Part shown: in pieces, positions 13,412 through 56,265 of the stretch
How positions within the stretch are numbered: the stretch's first letter is position 1
Layout: each line of letters begins with the position of its first letter
Source: Butyrivibrio sp.
GTDB lineage: Bacteria; Bacillota; Clostridia; Lachnospirales; Lachnospiraceae
Assembly (NCBI GenBank): GCA_015056495.1
Contig: SVGC01000005.1
Location: 74,982-138,981, forward strand
DNA: 64,000 bases
Direction of reading: 5' to 3'
Made by a program: the position numbers and the translations under genes
The notes under the pieces: model-generated
What the model saw: the letters and a program-made list of their open reading frames with translations, nothing else
Told to the model about the DNA's origin: nothing
Database searches by the model: none

Positions 13412-14605
13412 TCAGCCAAGCACTTTATCAAGTATTGCTATCATTTCATCCACGTTTTCTTTTGAGATAACAAGAGATGGAACAAACCTTATGATGTTGG
13501 CACCTGCGTTGATCAGGATCAGTCCATTTTCAAGAGCCTTGTTAATATACTCTCCTACAGGCTTGTTAAATACAAGTCCCTGCATGAGTCCGCTTCCACG
13601 TCTTGTTTCGATAAAATCATATTTATCCACAAGCTCATCCAGCTTTTCTTCAAGATATGGTGCAACACTGTTTACATTCTCAAGGATATGCTGTTTTTCA
13701 TAAAGATCCAGAACCTTACTGATAGCTGCACAGGCAAGTGGATTGCCTCCATAGGTTGTGCCATGATCACCTGCAACAAGTGAATTCTGACCTACCTTCT
13801 CAGTCATCATAAATGCACCAACAGGCACTCCGCATCCAAGTGCTTTGGCAGTAGTCATGATATCAGGCTTTACGCCATATTTCTGCCATGCATACATATA
13901 GCCGGTCCTACCCATTCCGCACTGGATCTCATCCAATATGAGCAGGATATCCTTTTCATCACAGATGGCTCTGATTCCCTCAAGGAATTCTTTTGTAGCA
14001 GGGTAAATACCGCCTTCTCCCTGTACTGTTTCAAGAATGATGGCACAGGTCTTGTCATTTACAAGGGCCTTGACGCTGTCTAGATCATTCATGTCAGCAA
14101 ATTTAATATTACCTATCATAGGTTCAAAAGGCTCACGATACTTAGGATTGCCTGTAACTGAGAGTGCACCAAAGGTTCTGCCGTGGAAGGAATGATTCAT
14201 TGCAATTATCTCATGATCATTTTTGCCATCCTTTAAAAATGCATATTTTCTCGCAGCTTTGAGAGCTCCTTCAATCGCTTCTGCTCCTGAATTGGTAAAA
14301 AAGACTCTGTCCATGCCTGAGACTTTCTTAAGCTTTTTAGCAGCTTCAATTGCAGGTACATTGTAATAATAGTTGGAGGTATGGATAACCTTGTCAATCT
14401 GTGCCTTTAAGGCATCATTGTATTCTTTATTGTTATATCCAAGAGCAAATACTGCGATACCTGACACAAAATCAAGGTATTTTTTGCCATTTATATCATA
14501 CAGATATACTCCATCACCTTTATCAAGAACCACCTGATAGCGGTTATATGTATGGAGCAGATCCTTTTCAGCTTCATCTATATATTCTTTCATCAAGTCT
14601 GACAT
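13412..14605 (-). CDS. argD: Acetylornithine aminotransferase
   Basis: Class-III aminotransferase with 397 aa, located in an arg operon. Confidence 0.85.
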   Translation of the reverse strand: MSDLMKEYIDEAEKDLLHTYNRYQVVLDKGDGVYLYDINGKKYLDFVSGIAVFALGYNNKEYNDALKAQIDKVIHTSNYYYNVPAIEAAKKLKKVSGMDRVFFTNSGAEAIEGALKAARKYAFLKDGKNDHEIIAMNHSFHGRTFGALSVTGNPKYREPFEPMIGNIKFADMNDLDSVKALVNDKTCAIILETVQGEGGIYPATKEFLEGIRAICDEKDILLILDEIQCGMGRTGYMYAWQKYGVKPDIMTTAKALGCGVPVGAFMMTEKVGQNSLVAGDHGTTYGGNPLACAAISKVLDLYEKQHILENVNSVAPYLEEKLDELVDKYDFIETRRGSGLMQGLVFNKPVGEYINKALENGLILINAGANIIRFVPSLVISKENVDEMIAILDKVLG

Positions 14606-14665
14606 ATTTTCTCTCCTTGTTGCTTTTGATCTGTAACGCCCGATACAACTTCTGTTGTCAACAGC

Positions 14666-15580
14666 TTAGCGCTGGCTGCTGACTGAATTGTCACTATCGT
14701 TCTCATCACTGTCATCAATAAAAACTGTTCCAACACCTTTATTAGTAAATATCTCAAGCAGTAGGCAATGAGGAATACGTCCATCAAGAATATGGACACT
14801 CTTTACGCCTTCTCTTACAGCAGATGTGCAGTTTCCAAGCTTTGGCAACATTCCGCCGCCAACTGTACCTGATTTAATGAGTTCGTCAGCCTCTGAGCAT
14901 GTGATCCTTGATATAAAAGAGCTCTTATCATTGATATCTCTGTACAGACCTTCAATATCAGTAAGGAATACAAGCTTATCAGCGTGGACAGCCTTGGCTA
15001 TTGCGCAGGCAGCATCATCAGCATTGATGTTAAATGTATCAAAATTATCATCAAGTCCTGTTGGTGCGATTATTGGCAGGTAGTCCTCTTCAAGAAGGTC
15101 ATAAAGGATCTTTGGATCCACCTTATCAACATCACCTACGTATCCGATGTCCTTACCATCTGAGTATTTCTTCTGAACATGCAAAAGACCGCTATCCTTG
15201 CCACTTATACCAATGGCCTTTACTCCCAATTCCTGTACCATAGTAACAAGCTGCTTATTTACTCTGCTAAGGACCATCTCAGCTATCTCCATGGTCTCGT
15301 TGTCAGTAACTCTGAGTCCGTTGACAAATTCTGCCTGTTTACCCACTTTTGAAACCCAATTGCTGATAGCTTTTCCACCACCGTGAACGATGATAGGTTT
15401 AAAACCAACCAGTTTTAATAAAGTAACGTCTTTGATGACATTTCTCTGAAGTTCTTCGTTGCTCATGGCACTTCCGCCATATTTGACAACGATGATCTTG
15501 CGATTGAATTTCTGAATATAAGGAAGCGCCTCAACCAGCACCTCTGCTTTTTTTAATACTTCCTGCATAGAATCGTCCAT
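14666..15580 (-). CDS. argB: Acetylglutamate kinase
   Basis: VVKYGGSAM and HGGG motifs in operon context. A short acidic C-terminal tail is present. Confidence 0.9.
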
Positions 15581-17359: not shown

Positions 17360-18412
17360 TCAAGGGAAGCATGGTGCAAAAAGTAATCCCTCTTCTTCAG
17401 GGAGACCAAACATGATATTCATGTTCTGGACTGCCTGTCCTGCAGCACCCTTTACCAGATTATCAAGGGCACCCATCATGATGATCCTGCCTGTTCTCTC
17501 GTCGATCTTAAAGCCGATGTCTACAAAGTTACTGTTTTCTACCCATCTTGTTTCAGGATAAACATCTTTATCTAAAAGTCTTATGAATTTCTCTTTTGCA
17601 TAATACTTCTCGTATGCAGCCCTTACTTCTTCGTAGGTTGGAAGCTTTCCATCCTTTTTTACAAGTGTGGCATACTCAGTTGCAAGGATGCCTCTGTTCA
17701 TTGGTGCAAGATGTGGTGTGAAGTTGATCTTGATCTCCTGTCCTGCTGCATATCCCAGCTGCTCTTCGATCTCAGGAGTATGTCTGTGAGTTGCAACTCC
17801 ATATGGCTTGGCGCTTTCATTTACTTCACAGTACAGATTAGCTACCTTGGCTCCTCTACCGGCACCGGATACACCACTAAGTGCATCTACGATAAGTGTG
17901 TTTGGATCTATAAGTCCTTCTTTTACAAGAGGATAAGCAGTCAGTATAGATGTTGTAGTATAGCATCCCGGGTTAGCAAGGATCCTTGTGTTCTTGATCT
18001 TATCTCTGTTGATCTCACACAATCCATAAACTGCTTCTTCTATATATTGAGGTGCCTTATGCTCGATCTTGTACCACTGCTCATATACTTTGACATCCTT
18101 AAGTCTAAAGTCAGCACTCAGATCGATGATCTTAACCTTGGATAAAACTTCTTCATTTACAAGGCTGGCGCATAGTCCCTGTGGTGTTGCTGTAAAAATA
18201 ACATCAACTGCCTTGGACAGCTCATCCATGTTGTCATCCATGCATTTAGCATCTACAAGCTTGAACATGTTGCCGTATATGTCACTATATTTCTGATCAA
18301 TAAAGCTTCTTGATCCGTACCATACTATTTCAGCATCCTTATGTCCCATAAGGAGTCTTACAATTTCTGCTCCAGCATAACCTGTAGCACCGATGATTCC
18401 TACCTTTATCAT
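17360..18412 (-). CDS. argC: N-acetyl-gamma-glutamyl-phosphate reductase
   Basis: GATGYAG Rossmann motif and the catalytic-Cys region NPGCYTT, 350 aa. Confidence 0.9.
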   Translation of the reverse strand: MIKVGIIGATGYAGAEIVRLLMGHKDAEIVWYGSRSFIDQKYSDIYGNMFKLVDAKCMDDNMDELSKAVDVIFTATPQGLCASLVNEEVLSKVKIIDLSADFRLKDVKVYEQWYKIEHKAPQYIEEAVYGLCEINRDKIKNTRILANPGCYTTTSILTAYPLVKEGLIDPNTLIVDALSGVSGAGRGAKVANLYCEVNESAKPYGVATHRHTPEIEEQLGYAAGQEIKINFTPHLAPMNRGILATEYATLVKKDGKLPTYEEVRAAYEKYYAKEKFIRLLDKDVYPETRWVENSNFVDIGFKIDERTGRIIMMGALDNLVKGAAGQAVQNMNIMFGLPEEEGLLFAPCFP

Positions 18413-18749
18413 TTTCTATGCCTTTCTTATATGTAAAGTTTTTTATGTGCGCTGCATTTTAAAGATCATTTTTATTGATCTTTATTTATCAAAAAACATC
18501 ACCTCACTATTATAATACATTAAAGTGTGACAGTGATACTTTTTGATCAAGTCAATTTTAATTAAGCACTGATAACTGTGCTATAAGTATATTTTCCATC
18601 CATTTCTATTAATTTATAGAAATAAAAAACATGTATTTTTCCTGACTTATTGATAAATATTCAAAATACATTTCATATAAATAATTATGTATAAAAATAC
18701 GTTATCAAAGAAATAATAAAATGTTAACTTAGATAAAATACCTTGTCGT

Positions 18750-31369: not shown

Positions 31370-32779
31370 TCAGGCCTTTTTCCACTTAACGCCTTCTCTT
31401 GTATCCTCAAGGATAATGCCCTTTTCAAGAAGTTCATTTCTGATCTCATCGGCTCTTGCAAAATTCTTGTCTTTACGAGCCTGCTGTCTCTCAGCTATGA
31501 GCTTTTCGATATCAGCATCACCAAGTTCCTGTTTTACTTCTACAATAAGTCCAAGAATATCTGAAAGCTCTACGATTTCCTTTTTGACTGCTTCTATAAA
31601 TGCTGCTGATGAAGCTCCGCTTACGTTGGTATTGGCAAACTTAACTGCATCAAATACTGCTGTGATTGCATCTGCAGTATTGAAGTCATCCTCCATAACG
31701 CTCTCAAACTTGCGTCTGAATCCTTCAAGTTCTGTCATAAGAGCCTTTTCAGCCTCTGTAAGATCAGCTGCTCTCTCTCCTTCAAGGAGGAAATTAAGGT
31801 TGCTTACGCTATTTACAATACGCTCATATCCAGCCTTAGCTGATTCCATAAGCTCGTCTGAGAAATTCAGTGGGCTTCTGTAATGAGCAGAGAGCATGAA
31901 CATTCTAAGTACCATAGCATCGTATTTTTCAAGAATATCTCTAACTGTAAAGAAGTTTCCTGCAGACTTGGACATCTTGTGGTTATTGATGTTCAGGAAT
32001 GCATTGTGCATCCAGTAACGTGAGAACTCGTGTCCGGAGCAGCCTTCTGACTGTGCTATCTCATTTTCATGATGTGGGAAAACAAGGTCTTCTCCGCCGC
32101 CATGGATGTCGATTTCTTCACCAAGGTATTTTTTACTCATAACTGAGCACTCAATGTGCCATCCAGGACGTCCCTGGCACCATGGTGATTCCCAGAAAGG
32201 CTCACCTTCTTTTTTAGGTTTCCAGAGAACGAAGTCCAGTGGATCTTCCTTCTGATCTTCACCAGATACTTTAAGAGCTCTTTCTCCACTTCTAAGGTCA
32301 TCAAGATTCTTGTGTGACAGCTTACCATATTCAGCAAACTTACGTGTTCTGTAATATACAGTTCCATCAGCTGCAGGATATGCATAGCCTTTTTCTATAA
32401 GTGTCTTGATCATATCGATCATGCCATCAATCTCCTGAGTAGCAAGAGGATGTGTTGTTGCAGGCATGATGTTCATTGAAGCCATGTCTTTTTTGCATTC
32501 TGCGATATATCTCTCTGAGATTACATTGGAATCAACGCCTTCTTCAATGGCCCTTTTGATGATCTTGTCATCTACGTCTGTAAAGTTAGATACGTAATTT
32601 ACTTCGAAGCCCTTATAGAGCATGTATCTTCTAACTGTATCAAAAAAGATCATAGGACGTGCATTTCCAATATGGATCAGGTTGTATACAGTAGGTCCGC
32701 ATACGTACATTCTGACCTTTCCTTCCTCAATAGGAACAAAGTCTTCTTTCTTTTTTGACATTGTGTTGTAAATCTGCAT
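31370..32779 (-). CDS. cysS: Cysteine--tRNA ligase
   Basis: HIGN (HIGH-class) and KMSKS motifs, 469 aa. Confidence 0.95.
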   Translation of the reverse strand: MQIYNTMSKKKEDFVPIEEGKVRMYVCGPTVYNLIHIGNARPMIFFDTVRRYMLYKGFEVNYVSNFTDVDDKIIKRAIEEGVDSNVISERYIAECKKDMASMNIMPATTHPLATQEIDGMIDMIKTLIEKGYAYPAADGTVYYRTRKFAEYGKLSHKNLDDLRSGERALKVSGEDQKEDPLDFVLWKPKKEGEPFWESPWCQGRPGWHIECSVMSKKYLGEEIDIHGGGEDLVFPHHENEIAQSEGCSGHEFSRYWMHNAFLNINNHKMSKSAGNFFTVRDILEKYDAMVLRMFMLSAHYRSPLNFSDELMESAKAGYERIVNSVSNLNFLLEGERAADLTEAEKALMTELEGFRRKFESVMEDDFNTADAITAVFDAVKFANTNVSGASSAAFIEAVKKEIVELSDILGLIVEVKQELGDADIEKLIAERQQARKDKNFARADEIRNELLEKGIILEDTREGVKWKKA

Positions 32780-32801: not shown

Positions 32802-33563
32802 TTAATAATCTTTATTTTCTGATTGTTCTTTCATAAGCTCTTCATTGGCTTTTTCCGGATCAAACTGTCCATTTGCAAAATACTGGCAACGCTTGTTAAG
32901 TTCAAGTTGTACAAATTTGAGTTCTCTCTGAAGATCTATGATCCTGCTGGTAAGCTCGCTCTGCTCATGAGCAAGATTGGAAATATCCTCTTTGACAGGA
33001 TCCGGCATGTGTATCTGGTCAAGTTCCTTCTGCGGACAATCCGGACAGACTCTCTTGACTACACGGCCAGGAACGCCTACTACAGTTGATCCTGGCGGAA
33101 CCTCTGAAAGTACAACGCTTCCAGCTCCGATCTTGGAATTATCCCCTATTGTAAATGAACCAAGTACTTTAGCACCTGTGCTTATCATTACATTATTTCC
33201 AATGGTCGGATGTCTCTTGCCTTTTTCCTTACCTGTACCACCAAGGGTAACGCCCTGATAAACAGTAACATTATCACCTATAACAGTTGTCTCACCTATT
33301 ATAACACCTGCACCGTGATCGATGAAAAATCCTTTTCCTATCACAGCTCCCGGATGTATCTCAATGCCGGTTTTTCTGCGTGCTCTCTGTGAAATAAGTC
33401 TTGCCAGAAAGTAGTGTTTTTTCAGATATAGCTTATGCGCAATCCTGTAAGATCTCATAACCTGATAACTAGGATACAAAAAAACTTCCCAGTCAGAATG
33501 TATAGCAGGATCTCTTTCCCTGATCAAAGCTATCTCTTCTTTAATATCAGCAATATATCCCAT
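32802..33563 (-). CDS. cysE: Serine O-acetyltransferase
   Basis: Hexapeptide-repeat core ([27 protein letters not shown]) plus a Firmicutes-type coiled-coil C-terminal tail. Confidence 0.9.
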   Translation of the reverse strand: [253 protein letters not shown]

Positions 33564-33593: not shown

Positions 33594-33855
33594 ATAAAAA
33601 AATCTCTATCAGAAAAAATCTGACAGAGACGAATAATATCCGCGGTTCCACTCTAATTGATAAAAAACAATCCACTTTATGCATGTAACGAATGCCTACG
33701 TGTCAGGATACTGTTTTCACCTGACAAGCCAATGATCGCACTTCAAATGGTCATATGTCAGAACTGCTTACAGCCAATGACAGTTCTTCTCTGTGGCACT
33801 GCATCCATCCTACTCTTATCATTCATTGCTTTATCATATTCAGTTTGATTTCTTT
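33594..33855 (-). promoter_or_regulatory. T-box riboswitch leader, probable Cys (UGC) specifier, controlling cysE-cysS
   Basis: The minus strand carries the T-box sequence AATTAGAGTGGAACCGCGG (33659..33640). A terminator stem TCTCTGTCAG / CTGATAGAGA plus a T-run follows at 33631..33594. The Stem I base is CAATGA / TCATTG, with GAAGUGCGA just before the closing helix (UGC at 33740..33738). Confidence 0.85.
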
Positions 33856-40060: not shown

Positions 40061-40372
40061 TTACATTAACTGTATTATCAATTCAACAATAAATACGGCT
40101 ATGCAACCACTGGCTGCTACTGTTAAAAGACTCTTATTCCTGATTGCAAGAACAAGTGCCACAATAAAGCCCACTAATGATGATACCATATAATCCGATG
40201 CATTCAAAATCGCCGGAAAAGTCATGGCTGCAAGGGTTGCAAAAGGCACATAATATAAAAATGATTTTACAAACTTATTAGTTATCTCTTTTCTGATAAG
40301 AGTAAGAGGCAAAACTCGTATAAGGTAGGTAACTATTGCCATGACAGCAATATACATATATGGACTACGCAT
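40061..40372 (-). CDS. azlD: Branched-chain amino acid transport protein AzlD
   Basis: 103-aa hydrophobic protein that overlaps the azlC stop. Confidence 0.7.
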   Translation of the reverse strand: MRSPYMYIAVMAIVTYLIRVLPLTLIRKEITNKFVKSFLYYVPFATLAAMTFPAILNASDYMVSSLVGFIVALVLAIRNKSLLTVAASGCIAVFIVELIIQLM

Positions 40373-41093
40373 CTGCTTCCACCTCCTCTTTATCAGAATC
40401 CTTTACTGGCGCTATGATTGCTGCAAGGGTTGCTATGACAACTGTCACAATTATGATCCTGAATCCGGATGAAATGCTGCTTAAAACAGGTGCATAAGTA
40501 AATACCGAGCTTAAAAGCATAGCGGATATTACAACTATCATCACACTCTTCTTGGCCTTGGCTTCAGGAATGATTATAGCCAGAAACATTCCGTATATTG
40601 CCATTCCCAATGCGCTGATAATGCGTCCCGGCATGATCTGACCGGCAACAGCACCAAGAAATGTGCCCAGCACCCAGCCAAAAACTGACAAAAAGATAAG
40701 TCCATATGAAAAGGCAGGTCTTAGCTCTCCGCCTTTTAATATGCTTACTCCAAATATCTCATCAGTCACACCATAAGCTATGCCCATTCTATGTATTGTA
40801 GGCACGTCACTCTTTAGCTTCTGCGTCAACGCTGTAGACATGAGCATATATCGCAGATTGATAATTAATTGCAAAAGTGCCATCTCAGCAAAACTGGCCT
40901 GTGCAGTGATAAGTGACAGTGACGAAAACTGGCCCGCACTTGTCACATTGGTAAGTGACATTATTACTGCCTGTAATGTTGTTAGTCCTGCCTCAGATGC
41001 CTGTATTCCAAAGGCAAAAGACACTGCTATATACCCAAGGCATATGGGAATAGCATTTTGCATTCCGAGTTTAAAATCTTCTAGTTTTTCCAT
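40365..41093 (-). CDS. azlC: AzlC-family branched-chain amino acid permease subunit
   Basis: The start is taken at M26 (MEKLEDFKLG). The upstream 25 codons of the ORF are translation of the palindromic repeat. Confidence 0.7.
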   Translation of the reverse strand: MEKLEDFKLGMQNAIPICLGYIAVSFAFGIQASEAGLTTLQAVIMSLTNVTSAGQFSSLSLITAQASFAEMALLQLIINLRYMLMSTALTQKLKSDVPTIHRMGIAYGVTDEIFGVSILKGGELRPAFSYGLIFLSVFGWVLGTFLGAVAGQIMPGRIISALGMAIYGMFLAIIIPEAKAKKSVMIVVISAMLLSSVFTYAPVLSSISSGFRIIIVTVVIATLAAIIAPVKDSDKEEVEADA

Positions 41094-41122
41094 TATCTCA
41101 TCCCTGCTACTTTTTTCATTTT

Positions 41123-41199
41123 TGACCCTAGGGGACGGGGATAGTGGGTCATTCTGACCAATGGTCAAAATGTCCCCTTAACCCCGTCCCCTAGGGTCA
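41123..41199. repeat. 77-bp GC-rich palindromic element, same family as 30847..30915
   Basis: The element reads TGACCCTAGGGGACGGGG ... CCCCGTCCCCTAGGGTCA. It overlaps the last 10 codons and the stop of the alaX-like gene. Confidence 0.9.
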
Positions 41200-46383: not shown

Positions 46384-46457
46384 GGCGAGATAGCTCAGTT
46401 GGCTAGAGCACGCGGTTCATACCCGCGGTGTCGAGGGTTCGAATCCCCCTCTCGCTA
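46384..46457 (+). tRNA. tRNA-Met (anticodon CAT), elongator-like; a lysidine-modified Ile2 cannot be excluded
   Basis: Hand-folded cloverleaf. The acceptor is GGCGAGA / TCTCGCT, the D arm GCTC-AGTTGGCTA-GAGC, and the anticodon arm CGCGG-TTCATAC-CCGCG. The T arm is GAGGG-TTCGAAT-CCCCC with one mismatch. CCA is not encoded. Confidence 0.85.
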
Positions 46458-46460
46458 CTA

Positions 46461-48519: not shown

Positions 48520-50289
48520 TTACATTCTCTCAGGAGCATCGAAACCAAGCAGATCAATACCAGTTTCAAGTACTTTAAGTGTTGTAGCAAGAAGAGCAAT
48601 ATAGCTCTGCTTTTTATCAGCATCCTGCTCAGCAAGAATCTTGGTCTCATGGTAGAAGCTGTTAAAGTCATTAGCAAGTTCATAAATATATGCACAGATC
48701 CTGTTAGGCATAAGATCTCTTGCTGCGCTCTCTACAGCATCTGCAAACCTTGTAACCTGAAGCATAAGTGCTTTCTGATTGTCTGTATCTGCATCTGCCA
48801 GAAGCGCGTCCTTGACTACTCCACCTTCCTGCTCGTATCTGTTAAGGATAGACTTGATCCTTACGATAGTGTACAGGATATATGGGCCAGTATCTCCTTC
48901 AAATGAAGTAAATTTATCAATATCAAAGATATAATCTTTTGATGGCTGGTTAGAAAGATCACCATACTTGATTGCAGCAAGAGCAACCTTATGTGCTGTC
49001 TGTCTTGCTTCATCATCACTGATGTCTGGTGTACCTTCTTTAATACGGCTATACATCTGCTCATCTATTTCAGCGATGAGTTTCTCAAGACGCATAACTC
49101 CGCCTTCTCTTGTCTTGAAAGGCTTACCATCTTTGCCGTTCATTGTACCAAATCCAACAAAGTGAAGCTCTGTCTCAGGAAGAACAAGCTTGGTCTTTCT
49201 TGCACATCTGAATACCTGTGTGAAGTAAAGCTCCTGTCTCTTATCAACAACGTAAACAAGGCCGTTTGGATGGAACTCTTTCATACGTGTATCAATTGTT
49301 GCAAGGTCTGTTGTATTGTAAAGAGAAGCACCATCTGACTTAAGAATCATGCATGGTGGGATTTCTTTTGTATCAGTCTCTTCAGCAACATCAACGACCA
49401 AAGCTCCCTGACTTTCATGAGCATATCCATGGCTCTTCATATAATCAACCATTCCAGGAATAACTTCATGTACGTCAGACTCACCTCTCCAAAGATCAAA
49501 ATCAACATTGAGGTTTTTATAGTTTTTCTTAAGATCAGCTATAGAAACATTCATGATGTGATGCCACAGTGCTCTGTAGCCCTTGTCACCATCCTGAAGT
49601 AATTTGGTAGCTTCCATAGCCTTAGCCTTAAACTCTTCATCCTCTTTTGAACGGGCACTTGCCTTAGGATAGATAGTCTCAAGCTCTGAAATAGTAAATG
49701 GTGCTTCCTTAGGATATGCACCTGTATGCTCGGGATCAAAATATGGAAGGTCTGGCTGTTCTTCTTTTAACTGGGAGATGATAAGTCCCATCTGAAGTCC
49801 CCAGTCACCCATATGTATATCACCGGTAACATCATTTCCTGTATATTTAAGGATACGTTTAATACTCTCACCGATAACAGCTGAACGAAGATGTCCTACA
49901 TGCAGAGGCTTGGCTACGTTTGGTCCGCCGTAATCAATGATGATCTTTGGCTGATGACCTGGCATAGATACACCAAATCTCTTCTCATGAAGCATCTTAA
50001 CAATATACTCTCTGATAAAAGTCTTGCTAAGCTTTAAATTCAAAAAGCCCGGCTTAACAGATTCTACAGCTTCAAAAGCAGCATTGTCCTGAAGGCACTC
50101 TGCTACTGCATCTGCAATGATGAAAGGTGCTTTGCCATATTTCTTGGCACCTGCCATGGCACCGTTGCACTGATATTCACAAAGGTCAGGTCTGTTAGAA
50201 ATAGTAACCTTTCCAAGTTCCTTATCGTAACCGGCTTTTTCAAAGGCAGCTGATACTTCTTTTGAGATTAAATCAATTAATTTATCCAA
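48520..50289 (-). CDS. argS: Arginine--tRNA ligase
   Basis: HVGH (HIGH-class) motif and a typical ArgS C-terminal anticodon-binding domain are present. The only plausible start is TTG at 50289, preceded by AAGAGGA. The ORF upstream of it is read-through across a tRNA gene. Confidence 0.9.
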   Translation of the reverse strand: MDKLIDLISKEVSAAFEKAGYDKELGKVTISNRPDLCEYQCNGAMAGAKKYGKAPFIIADAVAECLQDNAAFEAVESVKPGFLNLKLSKTFIREYIVKMLHEKRFGVSMPGHQPKIIIDYGGPNVAKPLHVGHLRSAVIGESIKRILKYTGNDVTGDIHMGDWGLQMGLIISQLKEEQPDLPYFDPEHTGAYPKEAPFTISELETIYPKASARSKEDEEFKAKAMEATKLLQDGDKGYRALWHHIMNVSIADLKKNYKNLNVDFDLWRGESDVHEVIPGMVDYMKSHGYAHESQGALVVDVAEETDTKEIPPCMILKSDGASLYNTTDLATIDTRMKEFHPNGLVYVVDKRQELYFTQVFRCARKTKLVLPETELHFVGFGTMNGKDGKPFKTREGGVMRLEKLIAEIDEQMYSRIKEGTPDISDDEARQTAHKVALAAIKYGDLSNQPSKDYIFDIDKFTSFEGDTGPYILYTIVRIKSILNRYEQEGGVVKDALLADADTDNQKALMLQVTRFADAVESAARDLMPNRICAYIYELANDFNSFYHETKILAEQDADKKQSYIALLATTLKVLETGIDLLGFDAPERM

Positions 50290-50318
50290 TTTAATTCCTC
50301 TTTCTATTAAAACTAAAC

Positions 50319-50390
50319 AGCACCTGAAGGGAGTCGAACCCTCATCACCAGCTTGGGAAGCTGGTGTATTAGCCGTTATACGACAAGTGC
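50319..50390 (-). tRNA. tRNA-Gly (anticodon CCC)
   Basis: Hand-folded cloverleaf. The acceptor is GCACTTG / CAGGTGC (one G-U pair), the D arm GTAT-AACGGCTA-ATAC, and the anticodon arm CCAGC-TTCCCAA-GCTGG. The T arm is GAGGG-TTCGACT-CCCTT and the discriminator is U. Confidence 0.85.
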
Positions 50391-50490
50391 ATTTACAATA
50401 CATTTTAATGCCTGATAATATAAAACGCAATATTCATTTATATGATATAATACTTAGTCAAAGTACGACAAAATTAGAAAGAATTGGAAG

Positions 50491-51224: not shown

Positions 51225-51361
51225 TTTTTTATATCATAGGAAATTGCTTTCCTATGATATAAAAAACGCTCCGCTAAGGATGCGCACTCGCGCGATAGGA
51301 ATATGTTGCATAAATGCAACCGCGCTCGGCGCGAGAATGTCGCAAGCGACATTCTTTGTTC
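51225..51361. repeat. 137-bp GC-rich multi-hairpin intergenic repeat, copy B (inverted relative to copy A)
   Basis: A hand alignment shows 2 mismatches over 137 bp against the reverse complement of copy A. It abuts the leuA-fusion stop codon at 51362. Confidence 0.95.
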
Positions 51362-53356
51362 TTACTGTACGCTACTTCTATACTGTACAGGTGTCATACC
51401 ATATTTTTTCTTAAATAATCTGTTGAAATGCTCAACATTCTGATAACCGGAAGCTTCTGCAACTCTTTCAACTTTCATGTTGCCATTTCTCAAAAGAGTG
51501 CTGGCTTTCTTAAGTCTGATCTTCTTAACGTTCTCACCAAATGTAGCGCCGGATTTTTCTTTAATATACTTGGACAGATAAGGCTTGGAGAGATAAAACT
51601 CTCTTGAAAGATCATCCAATGTAACTGTCTGGTAGTTCTCCTGAATATAATTGATGATGGAATTGATCCTCTCATCCTTGCCATTAAGGTCATTTCTGAC
51701 ACTTTCAATCTGGTTTACAGCTACACACAGAGCATTTATTGAAGATTTGATGATATCTTCATCGATACCTACTCCCCAAAGCTTAACACCATTACAGGTG
51801 ATTCCAACATAGGCAACAGCTTTGGATGATGATCCGCGGCTAAGAGCGTGCTCTTCATAGGTAGATAGTTCATAGCTGATATTAAAGTACTGCTTGAAGG
51901 CATTACTTACTGCATCAAGACGTCCATTACCGTTGGCTGCAATAATATGCTGTTTTCCTGCATGCTGTATTGTCATCTCAGCAAGGATTCCGTCTATCTG
52001 CTTGAAGTGGCAGTCAACAACCTGGAATACAACATCATTATGAACATACTTATCTTCAAATATCTGATAAATACGTGTTGGAGCAAGCTCTGCATGCTCT
52101 CTGTCTGAGATATCCTTGATGGTGTAGCTAAGGTCTGCCTGCATATCCTTTGGAACCATCATTCCATAATTGGTCTTAAGGATATAACTTACGCCGCCCT
52201 TACCAGACTGTGAGTTGATACGTATAACGTCGCCATCGTACTCTCTTCCGATATCCTTTGGATCGATAGGAAGATATGGAACGCTCCAGATTCCATTGTC
52301 TTTTCCTGCTTCATGCCAGGCAAAGCCTTTTGAAATGGCATCCTGATGTGATCCTGAAAAAGCAGTAAATACAAGATTTCCAGCATATGGCTGACGATCA
52401 TATATAGTCATTCTGGTAAGTCTCTCATAGGTTCTGGCAATTGTATTGATGTCAGAGAAATCCAGTTTAGGATCTACGCCATGAGAATACATGTTGATCG
52501 CAAGAGTTACGATATCAACGTTACCGGTTCTCTCTCCATTTCCAAAAAGAGTACCCTCGATTCTGTCTGCTCCTGCAAGGCATCCCAGTTCTGCATCTGA
52601 TATGCCGCATCCTCTGTCATTGTGAGGATGAAGTGAGAGTGTAACTGAATCTCTGTATTTCATATTTTTGCTAAGGTATTCAACCTGAGTCGCAAAAACA
52701 TGAGGCATAGCAATCTGCACTGTTGTAGGGATATTTATGATCACCTTATGATCCGGAGTTGGTTTCCAAACATCCAAAACAGCGTTGCATACTTCAAGAG
52801 CATAATCAACTTCAGTTCCCGGGAAGCTTTCAGGTGAATACTCAAATGAGAAATTACCGTTAGTCTCTTTTGCAAGCTTATCAAGAAGCTTAGCTCCATC
52901 AACAGCTATCTTTTTAATTTCTTCCTTGTCCTTTTTGAACACCTGCTCTCTCTGAGCAACAGATGTGGAATTGTAGAGGTGGATTATTGCATGAGGTGCA
53001 CCCTTTACAGCTTCAAAGGTTCTCTTGATGATATGCTCTCTTGCCTGAGTAAGTACCTGAACAGTTACATCGTCCGGTATCATATTCTTCTCAATAAGTG
53101 TTCTGGCAAATTCATATTCTGTCTCAGAAGCTGCAGGAAATCCTATCTCTATTTCTTTAAAACCTATATCTACAAGCATCTTGAAGAACTCAAGTTTTTC
53201 ATCAAGGCTCATAGGCTCGATCAATGCCTGATTGCCATCTCTAAGATCAACGCTGCACCAGATTGGAGGATGATCAATGTAATCCTTCTTTACCCAATCA
53301 TAAGTACATTTAGGTGGCATATAATATTGTCTTTGATACTTCTCGAAATTCTGCAT
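51362..53356 (-). CDS. leuA: 2-isopropylmalate synthase (long, LeuA2-type) fused to a C-terminal AraC-family HTH domain
   Basis: LeuA motifs are SVDLRDGNQA, LHPHNDRGCG and GNGERTGN, plus a regulatory domain up to about INALCVAVNQ. The last ~100 aa (51365..51694) carry the AraC signature LSKPYLSKYIKEKSG ... VAEASGYQNVEHFNRLFKKKYGMTPVQYR. The ATG at 53356 follows GGGAGGA. Confidence 0.8.
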   Translation of the reverse strand: MQNFEKYQRQYYMPPKCTYDWVKKDYIDHPPIWCSVDLRDGNQALIEPMSLDEKLEFFKMLVDIGFKEIEIGFPAASETEYEFARTLIEKNMIPDDVTVQVLTQAREHIIKRTFEAVKGAPHAIIHLYNSTSVAQREQVFKKDKEEIKKIAVDGAKLLDKLAKETNGNFSFEYSPESFPGTEVDYALEVCNAVLDVWKPTPDHKVIINIPTTVQIAMPHVFATQVEYLSKNMKYRDSVTLSLHPHNDRGCGISDAELGCLAGADRIEGTLFGNGERTGNVDIVTLAINMYSHGVDPKLDFSDINTIARTYERLTRMTIYDRQPYAGNLVFTAFSGSHQDAISKGFAWHEAGKDNGIWSVPYLPIDPKDIGREYDGDVIRINSQSGKGGVSYILKTNYGMMVPKDMQADLSYTIKDISDREHAELAPTRIYQIFEDKYVHNDVVFQVVDCHFKQIDGILAEMTIQHAGKQHIIAANGNGRLDAVSNAFKQYFNISYELSTYEEHALSRGSSSKAVAYVGITCNGVKLWGVGIDEDIIKSSINALCVAVNQIESVRNDLNGKDERINSIINYIQENYQTVTLDDLSREFYLSKPYLSKYIKEKSGATFGENVKKIRLKKASTLLRNGNMKVERVAEASGYQNVEHFNRLFKKKYGMTPVQYRSSVQ

Positions 53357-53595
53357 AAAAAAGTCCTCCCAACGGTAGATACTAATACACATTCAATTAA
53401 AATATATCAATCATCACAATAAAATATATCAATTTCTCTTGATGTATATTAGCATATCACGATTGAGCCGAAATAGCATTGATATTTTTAATCATTTTTA
53501 TTGATGTTTTTTATGCTTTTTTAATTTAATTCAATAAAGTGTCTTGTGCAACAAAAAAGAAGACGCCAAACCTGGTCTGACGCCTTCCAAAAATA

Positions 53596-53701: not shown

Positions 53702-55741
53702 TTATTCCTTATCTGGCTCTGCCTTTGGAGCTGCCTGTGGAGCTGGCTGAACCGGCTGCTGTGTTACTGATTGCTGCATCTGTGGAGCTGTCTGTGCCTG
53801 CATATTCTGCTGCATTCCTGCACCTGCTTTAGCCTGCTTTTTTGCTTTAATGTTCTTTATAATATTAAGAACTATCTGAACTAATAGATTTATTATAGCA
53901 AGTCCAAGAAGAATATAAACTACAATCGCAAGGATATTTGTTCTTGTTCCCACAAGATTTACTGACAGATATCCATTTGAAGGATCGATCTCATTGCTAT
54001 ATTCAACTACAAAATTATTCTTCTCATTAACTCCTGTAAGATCACCAAGACCTGATACTTCGCTATAATTTACTGTTCCTATACCTTTAACAGTATAAGT
54101 AAGGTTGCTGAATGACTTACTTGTATATATATTAAAGAATAACTTATCAACTAAAGAATAAGTATTTTTAAGTGGAAGCATTGCCTTTGACTGAGAACAC
54201 AAAATAAGGCTGTCATTACTTCCAAATACTTCTTCCCAAGCATCTTCCACTTCATATGAAGATCCTGAAGCCTTAAGGTCCACAATAATACCTTCATCTG
54301 TCTTGGCAACATTGACAACGTTAAGATCAGTGCCTTCAGCAGCTGCATTTAAAGCATCAGAAAGTGCTGTTACACCTTCATCACTCATATCATCTTCATA
54401 TAATACTTTTACTTCTTTTGAAATTTCATTCTTGTTACCAATTGTAACGATCACATCAATGTTCTTTACAGTATGACTTATCTTGGCTGTATATTCCATT
54501 GTGTTCAAATATGAAGATGAAGAAAACATCTGGTACTTTCCAGGATATGTTTCAGACTCTCCTCCTAAATAAATAGAATTAGTTGCTTCATATCCACCTA
54601 CTCCAAAACTGCCTGTATACTCTGCATTATTTCCAACATAAAATGCCACATTAACTTCTCCCTGGCTGTTGGAAATGTAGTTTTCAAGATTGATCTCTTC
54701 TTTTATATCTTTAAATACAAAGAGAAGATCTGGATTTCCAAGATTTTCTTCAACTGCAAGTTCTTCATCAGTCTCTGCATCAACATCAGAGTCCGTTGTC
54801 TCTTCTGTAGATCCAGCTGAAGTTGATGCTGCAGAATCAGCTTCTCCAGCTTCATCTACTGCTTCTGTCGGTTCAGACACTTCTGTAAAGGCTTCAAGTC
54901 CTTCAACGCCACAGAAAGCTTTAGTCACATCATTGATCTGATCCTTGGTCAGATTAGTTCCTTCAAGAGTGTAGTAATTAATTCCACTATCAGTTGTCCA
55001 TGTTCCTGTAGCAATTGATGTTTCGTGATCAGACATGAATGCTTTGATCTCATCCCCATTACTATCCATAGTGCTCTGAGGAATCTTCAATACGATTGTT
55101 CTGTTATATGTACCGTCTGTATTAACGTCTGTAATAAAATCAATTCCTGTGATAGGTAAAAATTCAATATTGTTAAGGCTTATAGAACCATAGGATGCTG
55201 TACCCTCAGATCCAATAATATTATAGTTAGTAGATGATTCATTGAAGATATATGATCTGTTACTGGAGTCAACATATCCCGCATCTACCATCAGATTCTC
55301 AAACCAGCTAAGAAGTTCCTGGCTTGTAAATTCTTCTTCATAACTTACGCCCTTAGCAAAAACTGAATTAGGAGCTACATAAGTAATGAGATTATCATAA
55401 TATTCACTATCCTCAATGAGCGATTCAACCTTGGTCTGATAATCCTCTAATGAAGTAAAATTGATATCAAAATTAAGTGTTACTACATCATCAGTATTGT
55501 CACTTGAAAAAGTGATCTCTTCCGGGCAATTCTGTTCAATAGTTGCAGTAATATTCTCAGCATCACCATTGATATACTGTGAGTTTTCACTCATATCAAC
55601 GGAAAGAGCCATGTGTCTTGTTCCGCTAAGGTCTTCATTTACTGTTAAATCTGTTTCAAGCTTACCACCGCATCCTGTCAGTATGAGCACTGCAGCAAAT
55701 ATAAGAGATGGTAAAATAACCTTTTTTATCTTATTCAGCAT
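53702..55741 (-). CDS. Hypothetical 679-aa lipoprotein with C-terminal TM helix and Q/P-rich tail
   Basis: Lipobox LILTGC and an acidic low-complexity linker are present. The C-terminal TM is followed by QQNMQAQTAPQMQQ...PQAAPK. No family was recognised. Confidence 0.6.
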   Translation of the reverse strand: MLNKIKKVILPSLIFAAVLILTGCGGKLETDLTVNEDLSGTRHMALSVDMSENSQYINGDAENITATIEQNCPEEITFSSDNTDDVVTLNFDINFTSLEDYQTKVESLIEDSEYYDNLITYVAPNSVFAKGVSYEEEFTSQELLSWFENLMVDAGYVDSSNRSYIFNESSTNYNIIGSEGTASYGSISLNNIEFLPITGIDFITDVNTDGTYNRTIVLKIPQSTMDSNGDEIKAFMSDHETSIATGTWTTDSGINYYTLEGTNLTKDQINDVTKAFCGVEGLEAFTEVSEPTEAVDEAGEADSAASTSAGSTEETTDSDVDAETDEELAVEENLGNPDLLFVFKDIKEEINLENYISNSQGEVNVAFYVGNNAEYTGSFGVGGYEATNSIYLGGESETYPGKYQMFSSSSYLNTMEYTAKISHTVKNIDVIVTIGNKNEISKEVKVLYEDDMSDEGVTALSDALNAAAEGTDLNVVNVAKTDEGIIVDLKASGSSYEVEDAWEEVFGSNDSLILCSQSKAMLPLKNTYSLVDKLFFNIYTSKSFSNLTYTVKGIGTVNYSEVSGLGDLTGVNEKNNFVVEYSNEIDPSNGYLSVNLVGTRTNILAIVVYILLGLAIINLLVQIVLNIIKNIKAKKQAKAGAGMQQNMQAQTAPQMQQSVTQQPVQPAPQAAPKAEPDKE

Positions 55742-55745
55742 TCTC

Positions 55746-56159
55746 TTATTCCTCCACTAACCATCTTCCGTCTTCAAGAACCAGTGAGAGTGACTCACTT
55801 TCCATTCCTTCTGTTTCAAAATAAAGAGTACAATATACAGTAGCTCTTTGTTCATCTTCTGAAATAACAGCATCTGAAATGTATAGTTCTACATCAGAAA
55901 CAGATACTCCAAGTCCGGTTAAAAGAGAATACTCAAGCTGAGCTTCTTCTACATACTCATCAACTGTCATATTATTCTTGGCAGTTGACAAGGCATAAGC
56001 CTTCTTATAGTTACCTTTAAGGAAACTATTCATATAATTCCTGGCAACTTTTTCTGGTGTGCTATAGCTATTCTGTGAAGTCAGAACTGCAACTACGATC
56101 ATGACTATCACAAATACTATAGACAAGATGTTTTTAATACTTTTAAAAAACCCTTTCAT
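55746..56159 (-). CDS. Hypothetical membrane-anchored protein
   Basis: The ATG at 56159 follows GGGAGG. It has an N-terminal TM and is 137 aa. Confidence 0.55.
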   Translation of the reverse strand: MKGFFKSIKNILSIVFVIVMIVVAVLTSQNSYSTPEKVARNYMNSFLKGNYKKAYALSTAKNNMTVDEYVEEAQLEYSLLTGLGVSVSDVELYISDAVISEDEQRATVYCTLYFETEGMESESLSLVLEDGRWLVEE

Positions 56160-56265
56160 TACTACCTCCCTATTTGTAATAAAAATCAACTAAAACAGTA
56201 TATCATAATACTCAATTTTGATATTTAAAAATTTTTAAAAATTCAAATTTTATATTTTTTTGCTC

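Follow-up and report, generated by a model that had tools for sequence, protein, structure and literature searches.

Proteins that are at once an enzyme of a pathway and a DNA-binding regulator of that pathway, their own gene included, are already known from PutA, BirA and NadR. We describe here a candidate of this kind in leucine biosynthesis: the gene leuA-HTH, which lies in a 64,000-nucleotide stretch of Butyrivibrio sp. DNA (GenBank assembly GCA_015056495.1, contig SVGC01000005.1; the whole stretch as analysed is called the window below) and encodes a complete 2-isopropylmalate synthase (LeuA) extended at its C-terminus by an AraC-type helix-turn-helix (HTH) domain. As proposed from sequence, enzyme and regulator would again share one polypeptide. 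The DNA-binding module here is an AraC two-HTH domain rather than a ribbon-helix-helix or winged helix, and the proposed signal would pass through the end-product feedback domain, not through the active site or a reaction intermediate. We put the probability that LeuA-HTH is a leucine-sensing trigger enzyme, which binds an operator and thereby autoregulates leuA and controls leuCD, at roughly 0.6.

Three further systems provide points of comparison. For the enzyme, the closest solved structure is Mycobacterium tuberculosis LeuA (Mt LeuA; 1SR9/3FIG, E 4e-157), a member of the same family with the same domain order (TIM barrel, two subdomains, regulatory domain) and a regulatory domain built as beta-beta-beta-alpha twice over; its catalytic residues, Tyr410 equivalent and leucine-pocket helix starts are kept in the window protein. 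Mt LeuA stops exactly where the window protein runs on into a linker and a 100-residue AraC domain, and its variable-number tandem repeat insertion is absent from the window protein. For the regulator, a natural model is the 'light switch' of E. coli AraC, a dimer with two flexible C-terminal two-HTH domains, a composite site abutting the -35 and a second, distant site, which its ligand switches between activation and looping repression. LeuA-HTH, however, would sense and dimerise not through a cupin but through an entire biosynthetic enzyme and its allosteric domain. Finally, Leu T-box and attenuation systems of Firmicutes control the same genes, and a T-box shares the leuA-HTH leader in some related species; the operator described here differs in being DNA upstream of the promoter, and control through it would act at initiation, sensing free leucine rather than tRNA charging. 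In the searchable literature we found no description of a LeuA-AraC fusion, a LeuA trigger enzyme or its conserved operator, and database entries name these fusions only '2-isopropylmalate synthase'.

A complete LeuA continues into an AraC-type domain

The gene and the domains of its product are laid out as follows.

51362..53356, minus strand: leuA-HTH, 2-isopropylmalate synthase with AraC-type DNA-binding domain (open reading frame, Pfam, NCBIfam, full-length orthologues at 70-96% identity)
53364..53370, minus strand: ribosome-binding site GGGAGGA, 7-nt spacer to the ATG at 53356
52433..53263, minus strand: HMGL-like TIM barrel, residues 32-308, with DLRDGNQ, HPHNDRG and GNGERTGN (Pfam PF00682, E 2.6e-69; aligned to 1SR9)
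52175..52378, minus strand: IPMS_D2 post-catalytic subdomain, residues 327-394 (Pfam PF22615, 110 bits; aligned to 1SR9)
51707..52090, minus strand: LeuA_dimer regulatory domain, residues 423-550 (Pfam PF08502, 83 bits; AlphaFold2 (AF2) per-residue confidence (pLDDT) about 86-94; invariant alignment columns)
51674..51706, minus strand: variable linker of about 13 residues (about 551-561; Mt LeuA end point; 27.9% mean identity, no invariant column)
51374..51673, minus strand: AraC/XylS DNA-binding domain, residues 562-661, seven helices with two HTH motifs (Pfam, PDB matches, AF2 helices)

The gene is a single uninterrupted frame of 664 codons (664 residues including the stop codon), and no stop or frameshift interrupts the domain junction. 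The open reading frame (ORF) that contains it spans 51362..53392 on the minus strand, and the ATG at 53356 is its likely start because the ribosome-binding site GGGAGGA lies at 7 nt and orthologues share the same first residue (MKNFEKY...). The alternative in-frame ATG at 53392 has no ribosome-binding site and lies inside the promoter region.

The best reading of the protein's sequence is that leuA-HTH encodes the cell's LeuA, a predicted leucine-feedback-inhibited 2-isopropylmalate synthase. It scores 811 bits against the NCBIfam subfamily model PRK03739 (cut-off 455) and 681 bits against the stricter equivalog TIGR00970, just below the cut-off of 697. The metal and substrate residues are intact (Arg-Asp of DLRDGNQ, HxH of HPHNDRG, GNGERTGN), and the enzyme looks fully active both in the window protein and in roughly 80 or more orthologues from other species. 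The leucine pocket retains both helix-start motifs, which are invariant across the fusion family. Alignment to 1SR9 places the PYLP Tyr equivalent to Mt Tyr410 at residue 361; mutation of Mt Tyr410 abolishes leucine sensitivity (reviewed in PMC10464499). The role of the pocket has been described, with loops at the regulatory-domain interface closing on the ligand (PMC11057210).

The C-terminal domain matches HTH_18 at residues 583-661 with 70.8 bits (cut-off 33.6) and HTH_AraC with 54.1 bits (cut-off 26.6), and its segment finds the DNA-binding domains of YesN, GadX, XylR, MarA, SoxS and RamA in the PDB. Its recognition helices are SKPYLSKYIKEK and NVEHFNRLFKK. Pfam matched neither of the usual AraC/XylS companions, the cupin AraC_binding (PF02311) or a receiver, in the window protein; such a companion is a typical and not a defining trait of the family, and its place here is taken by a complete LeuA. 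A first-pass annotation made from the DNA alone had described this gene as one intact frame with a ribosome-binding site and the ATG at 53356, encoding a long-form LeuA complete in catalytic motifs and regulatory domain, then a linker of about 10 residues and a canonical two-HTH AraC/XylS module. All of this is borne out, the linker being slightly longer than estimated. Its remark that AraC modules are not normally joined to a whole biosynthetic enzyme needs qualifying: AraC domains on enzyme-like folds have precedents in Ada and in the DJ-1-type regulators GlxA and FtrA.

The fusion is widespread and its DNA-binding surface is conserved

The same five-domain Pfam architecture was found in all 120 homologue clusters listed, which share 76-96% identity with the window protein over lengths of about 663-667 residues. 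The fusion is present in isolates and in the complete genome of Butyrivibrio proteoclasticus B316. We further scanned one genome per species, which yielded at least 553 relatives, and analysed the best 80 loci. All 80 span the LeuA-HTH junction, and in 78 the alignment takes in at least residues 1-661, with 68-88% identity. They come from at least 12 named genera of Lachnospiraceae (Butyrivibrio, Dorea, Roseburia, Coprococcus, Mediterraneibacter, Merdimonas, Schaedlerella, Faecalicatena, Eisenbergiella, Agathobacter, Lachnospira and Blautia) and, outside the family, from the Negativicute Sporomusa acidovorans. When the C-terminal 264 residues (regulatory domain, linker and HTH) were searched against 1.84 billion cluster representatives, about 24 continuous matches were obtained at the 50%-identity level. 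One protein from the representative search, P0187 (732 residues), seemed a distant fusion; it turned out to be an ordinary AraC protein and was excluded.

Conservation is uneven along the protein. Mean identity to the window protein across 77 species is 82.5% in the TIM barrel, 67.7% in the regulatory domain, 70.0% in the HTH domain and 27.9% in the linker, and the two recognition helices are 87-92% conserved. That the recognition helices are kept while the linker drifts indicates that the DNA-binding surface is under purifying selection.

These observations bear on the possibility that the HTH is a non-regulatory appendage (structural, localising or a decaying remnant), or that the fusion is an artefact of assembly or annotation. 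The fusion recurs in independent assemblies, in isolates and in the complete B316 genome, the recognition helices are conserved against a drifting linker, and the Pfam scores lie far above their cut-offs. We regard this explanation as effectively refuted. The fusion is real and ancient and not an assembly artefact, and the architecture, whose confinement to a single assembly would have spoken against the first-pass annotation, is shared by every listed cluster and every one of the best loci.

A conserved operator abuts the leuA-HTH promoter

Upstream of the gene, abutting the -35 of its promoter, stands an operator of about 28 bp (site 1) with the consensus TAAAAwAnATCAAnnAAAnTGATTAAA. A position weight matrix (PWM) scan for it covered both strands of 1.44 Mb, comprising the 80 loci and the whole window, at a threshold of at least 14 bits. 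It returned 116 matches, each of them upstream of a fusion gene at a distance of no more than 700 nt; shuffled sequence gave none. A match occurs in 77 of the 81 loci; two of the four negatives are without upstream sequence, giving 77 of 79 that can be judged. In S. acidovorans the fusion and the operator occur together, with the gene again apart from other leu genes, and their joint presence in so distant a species supports a link beyond co-occurrence. The promoter region of the window contains the following elements.

53486..53513, minus strand: operator site 1, TAAAAAACATCAATAAAAATGATTAAAA (PWM 36.1 bits, the sole strong match in the 64-kb window)
53478..53485, minus strand: a third ATCA element, ATATCAAT, which prolongs site 1 in the direction of the -35 (read from sequence; in 11-bp phase with ATCAA and TGAT)
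53446..53454, minus strand: probable extended -10, TGcTAATAT (read from sequence; homologous to the -10 preceding relatives' T-box leaders)
53424..53451, minus strand: weak element resembling site 2, TAATATACATCAAGAGAAATTGATATAT, which overlaps the -10 and the region of the transcription start (PWM 6.5 bits)
53398..53425, plus strand: inverted half-operator, TAAAATATATCAATCATCAC, between promoter and ribosome-binding site (PWM 9.3 bits)
53558..53588, minus strand: terminator-like hairpin of the upstream gene, which bounds the leuA-HTH promoter region on its upstream side (hairpin scan)

The upstream regions are of two classes. Most species, including that of the window, share a common layout of site 1, a further ATCA element, a weak -35 and an extended -10. 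Because of the weak -35, a consensus promoter scan did not list the -10 of the window. The third ATCA element has an ATCAC or ATCAT equivalent in most orthologue promoters. Many loci carry, over the transcription start, a second direct copy of the operator (site 2) with the consensus TAAAAaAnrACAAnnAAATTGATnAtTAT. Among the 26 loci having both sites, 24 place these direct repeats 73-74 bp apart, as against 210 bp in E. coli AraC.

A CodY box was considered as an explanation of the operator and rejected on inspection, no formal test being made: the CodY consensus AATTTTCWGAAAATT does not fit it.

The operator marks genes committed to leucine

Metagenome contigs were scanned for the exact operator pattern, and 120 stretches were returned. 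The next gene downstream is a correctly oriented leuA in 95 of them; in one a hydrolase gene comes first and leuA-HTH second, and another (L130) has leuC-leuD. A further 15 are cut by contig ends, and the remaining eight, in DNA that is AT-rich and in part eukaryote-like, can plausibly be put down to chance.

The leuC-leuD match led to a second promoter type. An operator of 27-36 bits, set about 106 nt ahead of the leuC start codon ATG and in the promoter layout seen at leuA-HTH, occurs at four Butyrivibrio loci: L130, a contig whose LeuC is identical to that of B316, B. hungatei and strain AE2032. On these four contigs no operator match of at least 8 bits was found near ilvN-ilvC or ilvE. Presence at leuA-HTH and leuCD, and not at ilvN-ilvC or ilvE, identifies the motif as the mark of a putative leucine-biosynthesis regulon, and the operator is specific for leucine-committed genes.

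Downstream of leuCD at the AE2032 locus (L208), the gene next to ilvE encodes an ordinary regulator of the AraC_binding and HTH_18 type (14348..15208, minus strand), a neighbour not conserved at the three remaining leuCD loci.

Operator and T-box occur together in some relatives

Rfam identified neither a T-box nor any other element in the 5' region of leuA-HTH in the window. In 16 of the 80 related species, a Leu T-box leader (specifier CUC or CUG) stands between promoter and gene, the Sporomusa leader scoring 121 bits in Rfam. All 16 keep site 1, which lies directly upstream of the promoter driving the leader, and the leader starts just after the -10. The T-box leader thus fixes the position of the promoter independently and places site 1 upstream of the -35, as a non-transcribed DNA element. 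The reading of site 1 as an RNA element is ruled out by the same arrangement, site 1 lying upstream of the -10 that precedes the leaders.

The first-pass annotation had noted the lack of a Leu T-box and suggested an alternative control logic. For the window the absence is confirmed, but 16 of 80 relatives combine T-box and operator: the two coexist, and neither replaces the other.

Elsewhere in the window, a T-box leader (33622..33835, minus strand, 115 bits), presumably a Cys T-box, precedes genes for a hexapeptide acyltransferase resembling serine acetyltransferase (32802..33563) and for cysS (31370..32779). The organism therefore uses T-boxes, though not at leuA.

Derivatives lacking catalysis retain the regulatory domain and HTH

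Several divergent members of the family have lost catalytic residues. In P0133 the catalytic motifs are degraded to DLKDENQ and QPFDEDRRG, and in P0123 to RPGNARG and GNGPGAGL; P0136 has lost the HMGL-like match, and P0131 most of its N-terminus. The derivatives with a dead or deleted catalytic domain retain the regulatory domain and the HTH. The derivative loci and their proteins are these.

L209: P0133
L210: P0132
L211: P0136
L212: P0131

P0133 and P0136 occupy the syntenic slot of normal orthologues, with scpA/scpB upstream, and the P0133 locus also has the PBP5-type carboxypeptidase gene upstream and decarboxylase genes downstream. Normal orthologues are 81-89% identical over the N-terminal 400 residues and 69-84% over the C-terminal 264, whereas in the derivatives the corresponding figures are 21-41% and 47-58%. 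This reversal suggests that the regulatory domain and HTH are worth keeping without the enzyme. Operators upstream of the derivatives are weak or absent. It is possible that the derivatives serve purely as sensor regulators, perhaps in organisms auxotrophic for leucine.

Such proteins resemble known regulators in which an enzyme-derived domain is joined to an HTH (MocR/GabR, GlxA/FtrA, AdpA, Ada), and the dead derivatives P0133, P0136 and P0131 parallel these pseudoenzyme sensors. LeuA-HTH itself differs from them in that its enzyme looks fully active and is that of the committed step of its pathway.

The derivatives also inform the question of what is sensed. LeuA-HTH could be an autoregulator whose signal is not leucine but the catalytic state (2-oxoisovalerate, acetyl-CoA or CoA) or another branched-chain metabolite. 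The catalytic domain of the fusion is intact and, in characterised LeuA, is allosterically coupled to the regulatory domain; LeuA_dimer domains of relatives sense other ligands, such as isoleucine in CimA (PMC13381585). We nevertheless consider a signal other than leucine improbable. Derivatives without catalytic residues or without the barrel keep the regulatory domain and HTH, which points to the regulatory domain as the apparent sensor; its leucine pocket has helix-start motifs that do not vary within the fusion family; and the putative regulon is leucine-specific, comprising leuA and leuCD and leaving out the ilvN-ilvC of the same contigs.

A model for leucine-responsive control by LeuA-HTH

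We infer that the fused HTH is the operator binder and leucine the effector, and likewise the sign of regulation. In the model we propose, the leucine pockets of the LeuA homodimer are formed by its regulatory domains, and a pair of DNA-binding domains would be presented immediately beyond them. The dimer would bind the composite operator, with its ATCAA, TGAT and ATCA elements in 11-bp phase, at the leuA-HTH and leuCD promoters, and leucine occupancy of the regulatory domain would alter the presentation of both DNA-binding domains. Plentiful leucine would then lower leu gene expression, either because activation from the site next to the -35 is lost or because site 1 and site 2 are joined in an AraC-like loop. 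A single leucine-binding domain would in this way steer both enzyme activity and pathway transcription.

A more elaborate form of this model is one that we hold tentatively, at somewhat less than even odds. In it, one end-product domain would serve both allosteric feedback and the transcription of leuA and leuCD through an AraC-like two-site switch, made up of the -35-abutting site and a start-site copy seven helical turns away, and rare descendants would have shed catalysis to become dedicated leucine-sensing transcription factors.

The first-pass annotation had predicted a trigger enzyme in which ligand occupancy of LeuA gates DNA binding. The prediction gains independent support from the restriction of the operator to leuA-HTH and leuCD, from the selected recognition helices and from the catalysis-free derivatives, while DNA binding and leucine gating themselves keep the status of predictions.

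Several observations weigh against the model. The second site of the window is weak (6.5 bits) and spaced 62 bp from site 1 rather than the 73-74 bp found elsewhere. The AF2 model, which had been put forward as a view of the domain arrangement, gives confident single domains and a predicted template-modelling score (pTM) of 0.53, at which the inter-domain arrangement and the docking of the HTH are not readable. Evidence from the leuCD promoter covers Butyrivibrio alone, with four loci, and the catalysis-free derivatives are rare, being metagenomic singletons with 1-4 members per 90%-identity cluster. Two metagenomic loci have an intact operator without the HTH: L127 (812..2476, minus strand), a low-coverage contig, where the operator precedes a LeuA of 554 residues, and L169 (269..2386, plus strand), where it precedes a LeuA with an unrelated low-complexity C-terminal tail. 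A decayed HTH remnant was sought downstream of the short LeuA in L127 and none was found, about 800 nt of AT-rich non-coding DNA following the gene. Both cases may reflect recent loss, recombination or misassembly. In addition, the operator core ATCAATAAAAATGAT, a 15-mer, recurs in the window within a palindrome at the promoter of argC (PWM 10.9 bits), which suggests that similar AT-rich palindromes may serve other promoters or regulators.

Some of these points, together with the inferred nature of the step from HTH to operator, leave room for a separately encoded regulator that binds the operator, with the fused HTH functional and LeuA-HTH acting on other targets or binding DNA nonspecifically. 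The operator without HTH at L127 and the related palindrome at argC would suit such a regulator, and the derivatives, which keep their HTH despite weak or absent operators, point to other targets at least in those lineages. We think it unlikely, since operator and fusion go together in nearly all testable species, distant Sporomusa among them, with no further operator copy in the 1.44 Mb scanned and no conserved regulator gene neighbouring the 80 loci. Furthermore, an 11-bp two-box geometry and a position abutting the -35 are typical of AraC/XylS sites, such as those of MarA and AraC.

The argC element is a perfect palindrome, AAAGATCAATAAAAATGATCTTT (18460..18487, minus strand), upstream of argC (17360..18412) and just downstream of a TATAAT-like box. 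It fronts the argC-argJ-argB-argD cluster and may be an ArgR-type box.

Should LeuA-HTH prove to be a leucine-sensing trigger enzyme, the implications would reach well beyond this locus. Gut and rumen commensals, including Roseburia, Dorea, Coprococcus, Mediterraneibacter and Butyrivibrio, would run leucine synthesis by means of a self-regulating enzyme, combining fast allosteric and slow transcriptional control through one leucine site, a compact design not known to have been described in amino-acid biosynthesis. Thousands of entries now named '2-isopropylmalate synthase' would gain a regulator role, a defined operator and a regulon. The protein would also offer a natural leucine-specific transcription factor for biosensor engineering, a field that has only now begun to build sensors from regulatory domains of the LeuA type (PMC13381585). 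The catalytically dead derivatives provide a concrete series from enzyme domain to sensor domain and, on the more elaborate form of the model, the ligand domain of a transcription factor would have been caught evolving from a working enzyme.

Genomic context and other features of the window

leuA-HTH is a stand-alone unit across the family. In the window its neighbours are queH, which is convergent, and a 679-residue protein without Pfam matches, and the ~10 kb around it are free of leu and ilv genes. Clustering of about 1160 neighbour ORFs from the 80 loci revealed no conserved leu, ilv, branched-chain amino-acid or regulator gene; the commonest neighbours, each in at most 17 of the 80, are a PBP5-type carboxypeptidase, scpA/scpB, oxaloacetate-decarboxylase subunits and guaA. 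The early observation that the gene stands alone, with leuBCD not nearby, thus holds in the window and across 80 loci from other species.

Features adjoining or near leuA-HTH in the window are the following.

51333..51356, unstranded: hairpin between the convergent leuA-HTH and queH, a probable bidirectional terminator (hairpin scan)
53702..55741, minus strand: the 679-residue upstream neighbour, lipoprotein-like at its N-terminus and acidic in the middle, with a C-terminal transmembrane segment and a tail rich in Gln and Pro
55746..56189, minus strand: membrane-anchored protein of 147 residues, no Pfam match
40365..41168, minus strand: AzlC-family gene (branched-chain amino-acid export), about 10 kb from leuA-HTH, with no operator match near it

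In B. proteoclasticus B316 (L002, 9344..9793) a small ACT-domain protein (ACT_8, 134-149 residues) lies directly upstream of leuA-HTH. The same neighbour occurs in two rumen contigs and is absent from the window and from strain MC2013.

Two tRNA genes were also identified in the window. tRNA-Gly(CCC), at 50319..50390 on the minus strand and inside a mechanically listed long ORF (48520..50430), immediately precedes argS, which has the same orientation, and tRNA-Met(CAT) lies at 46384..46458 on the plus strand.

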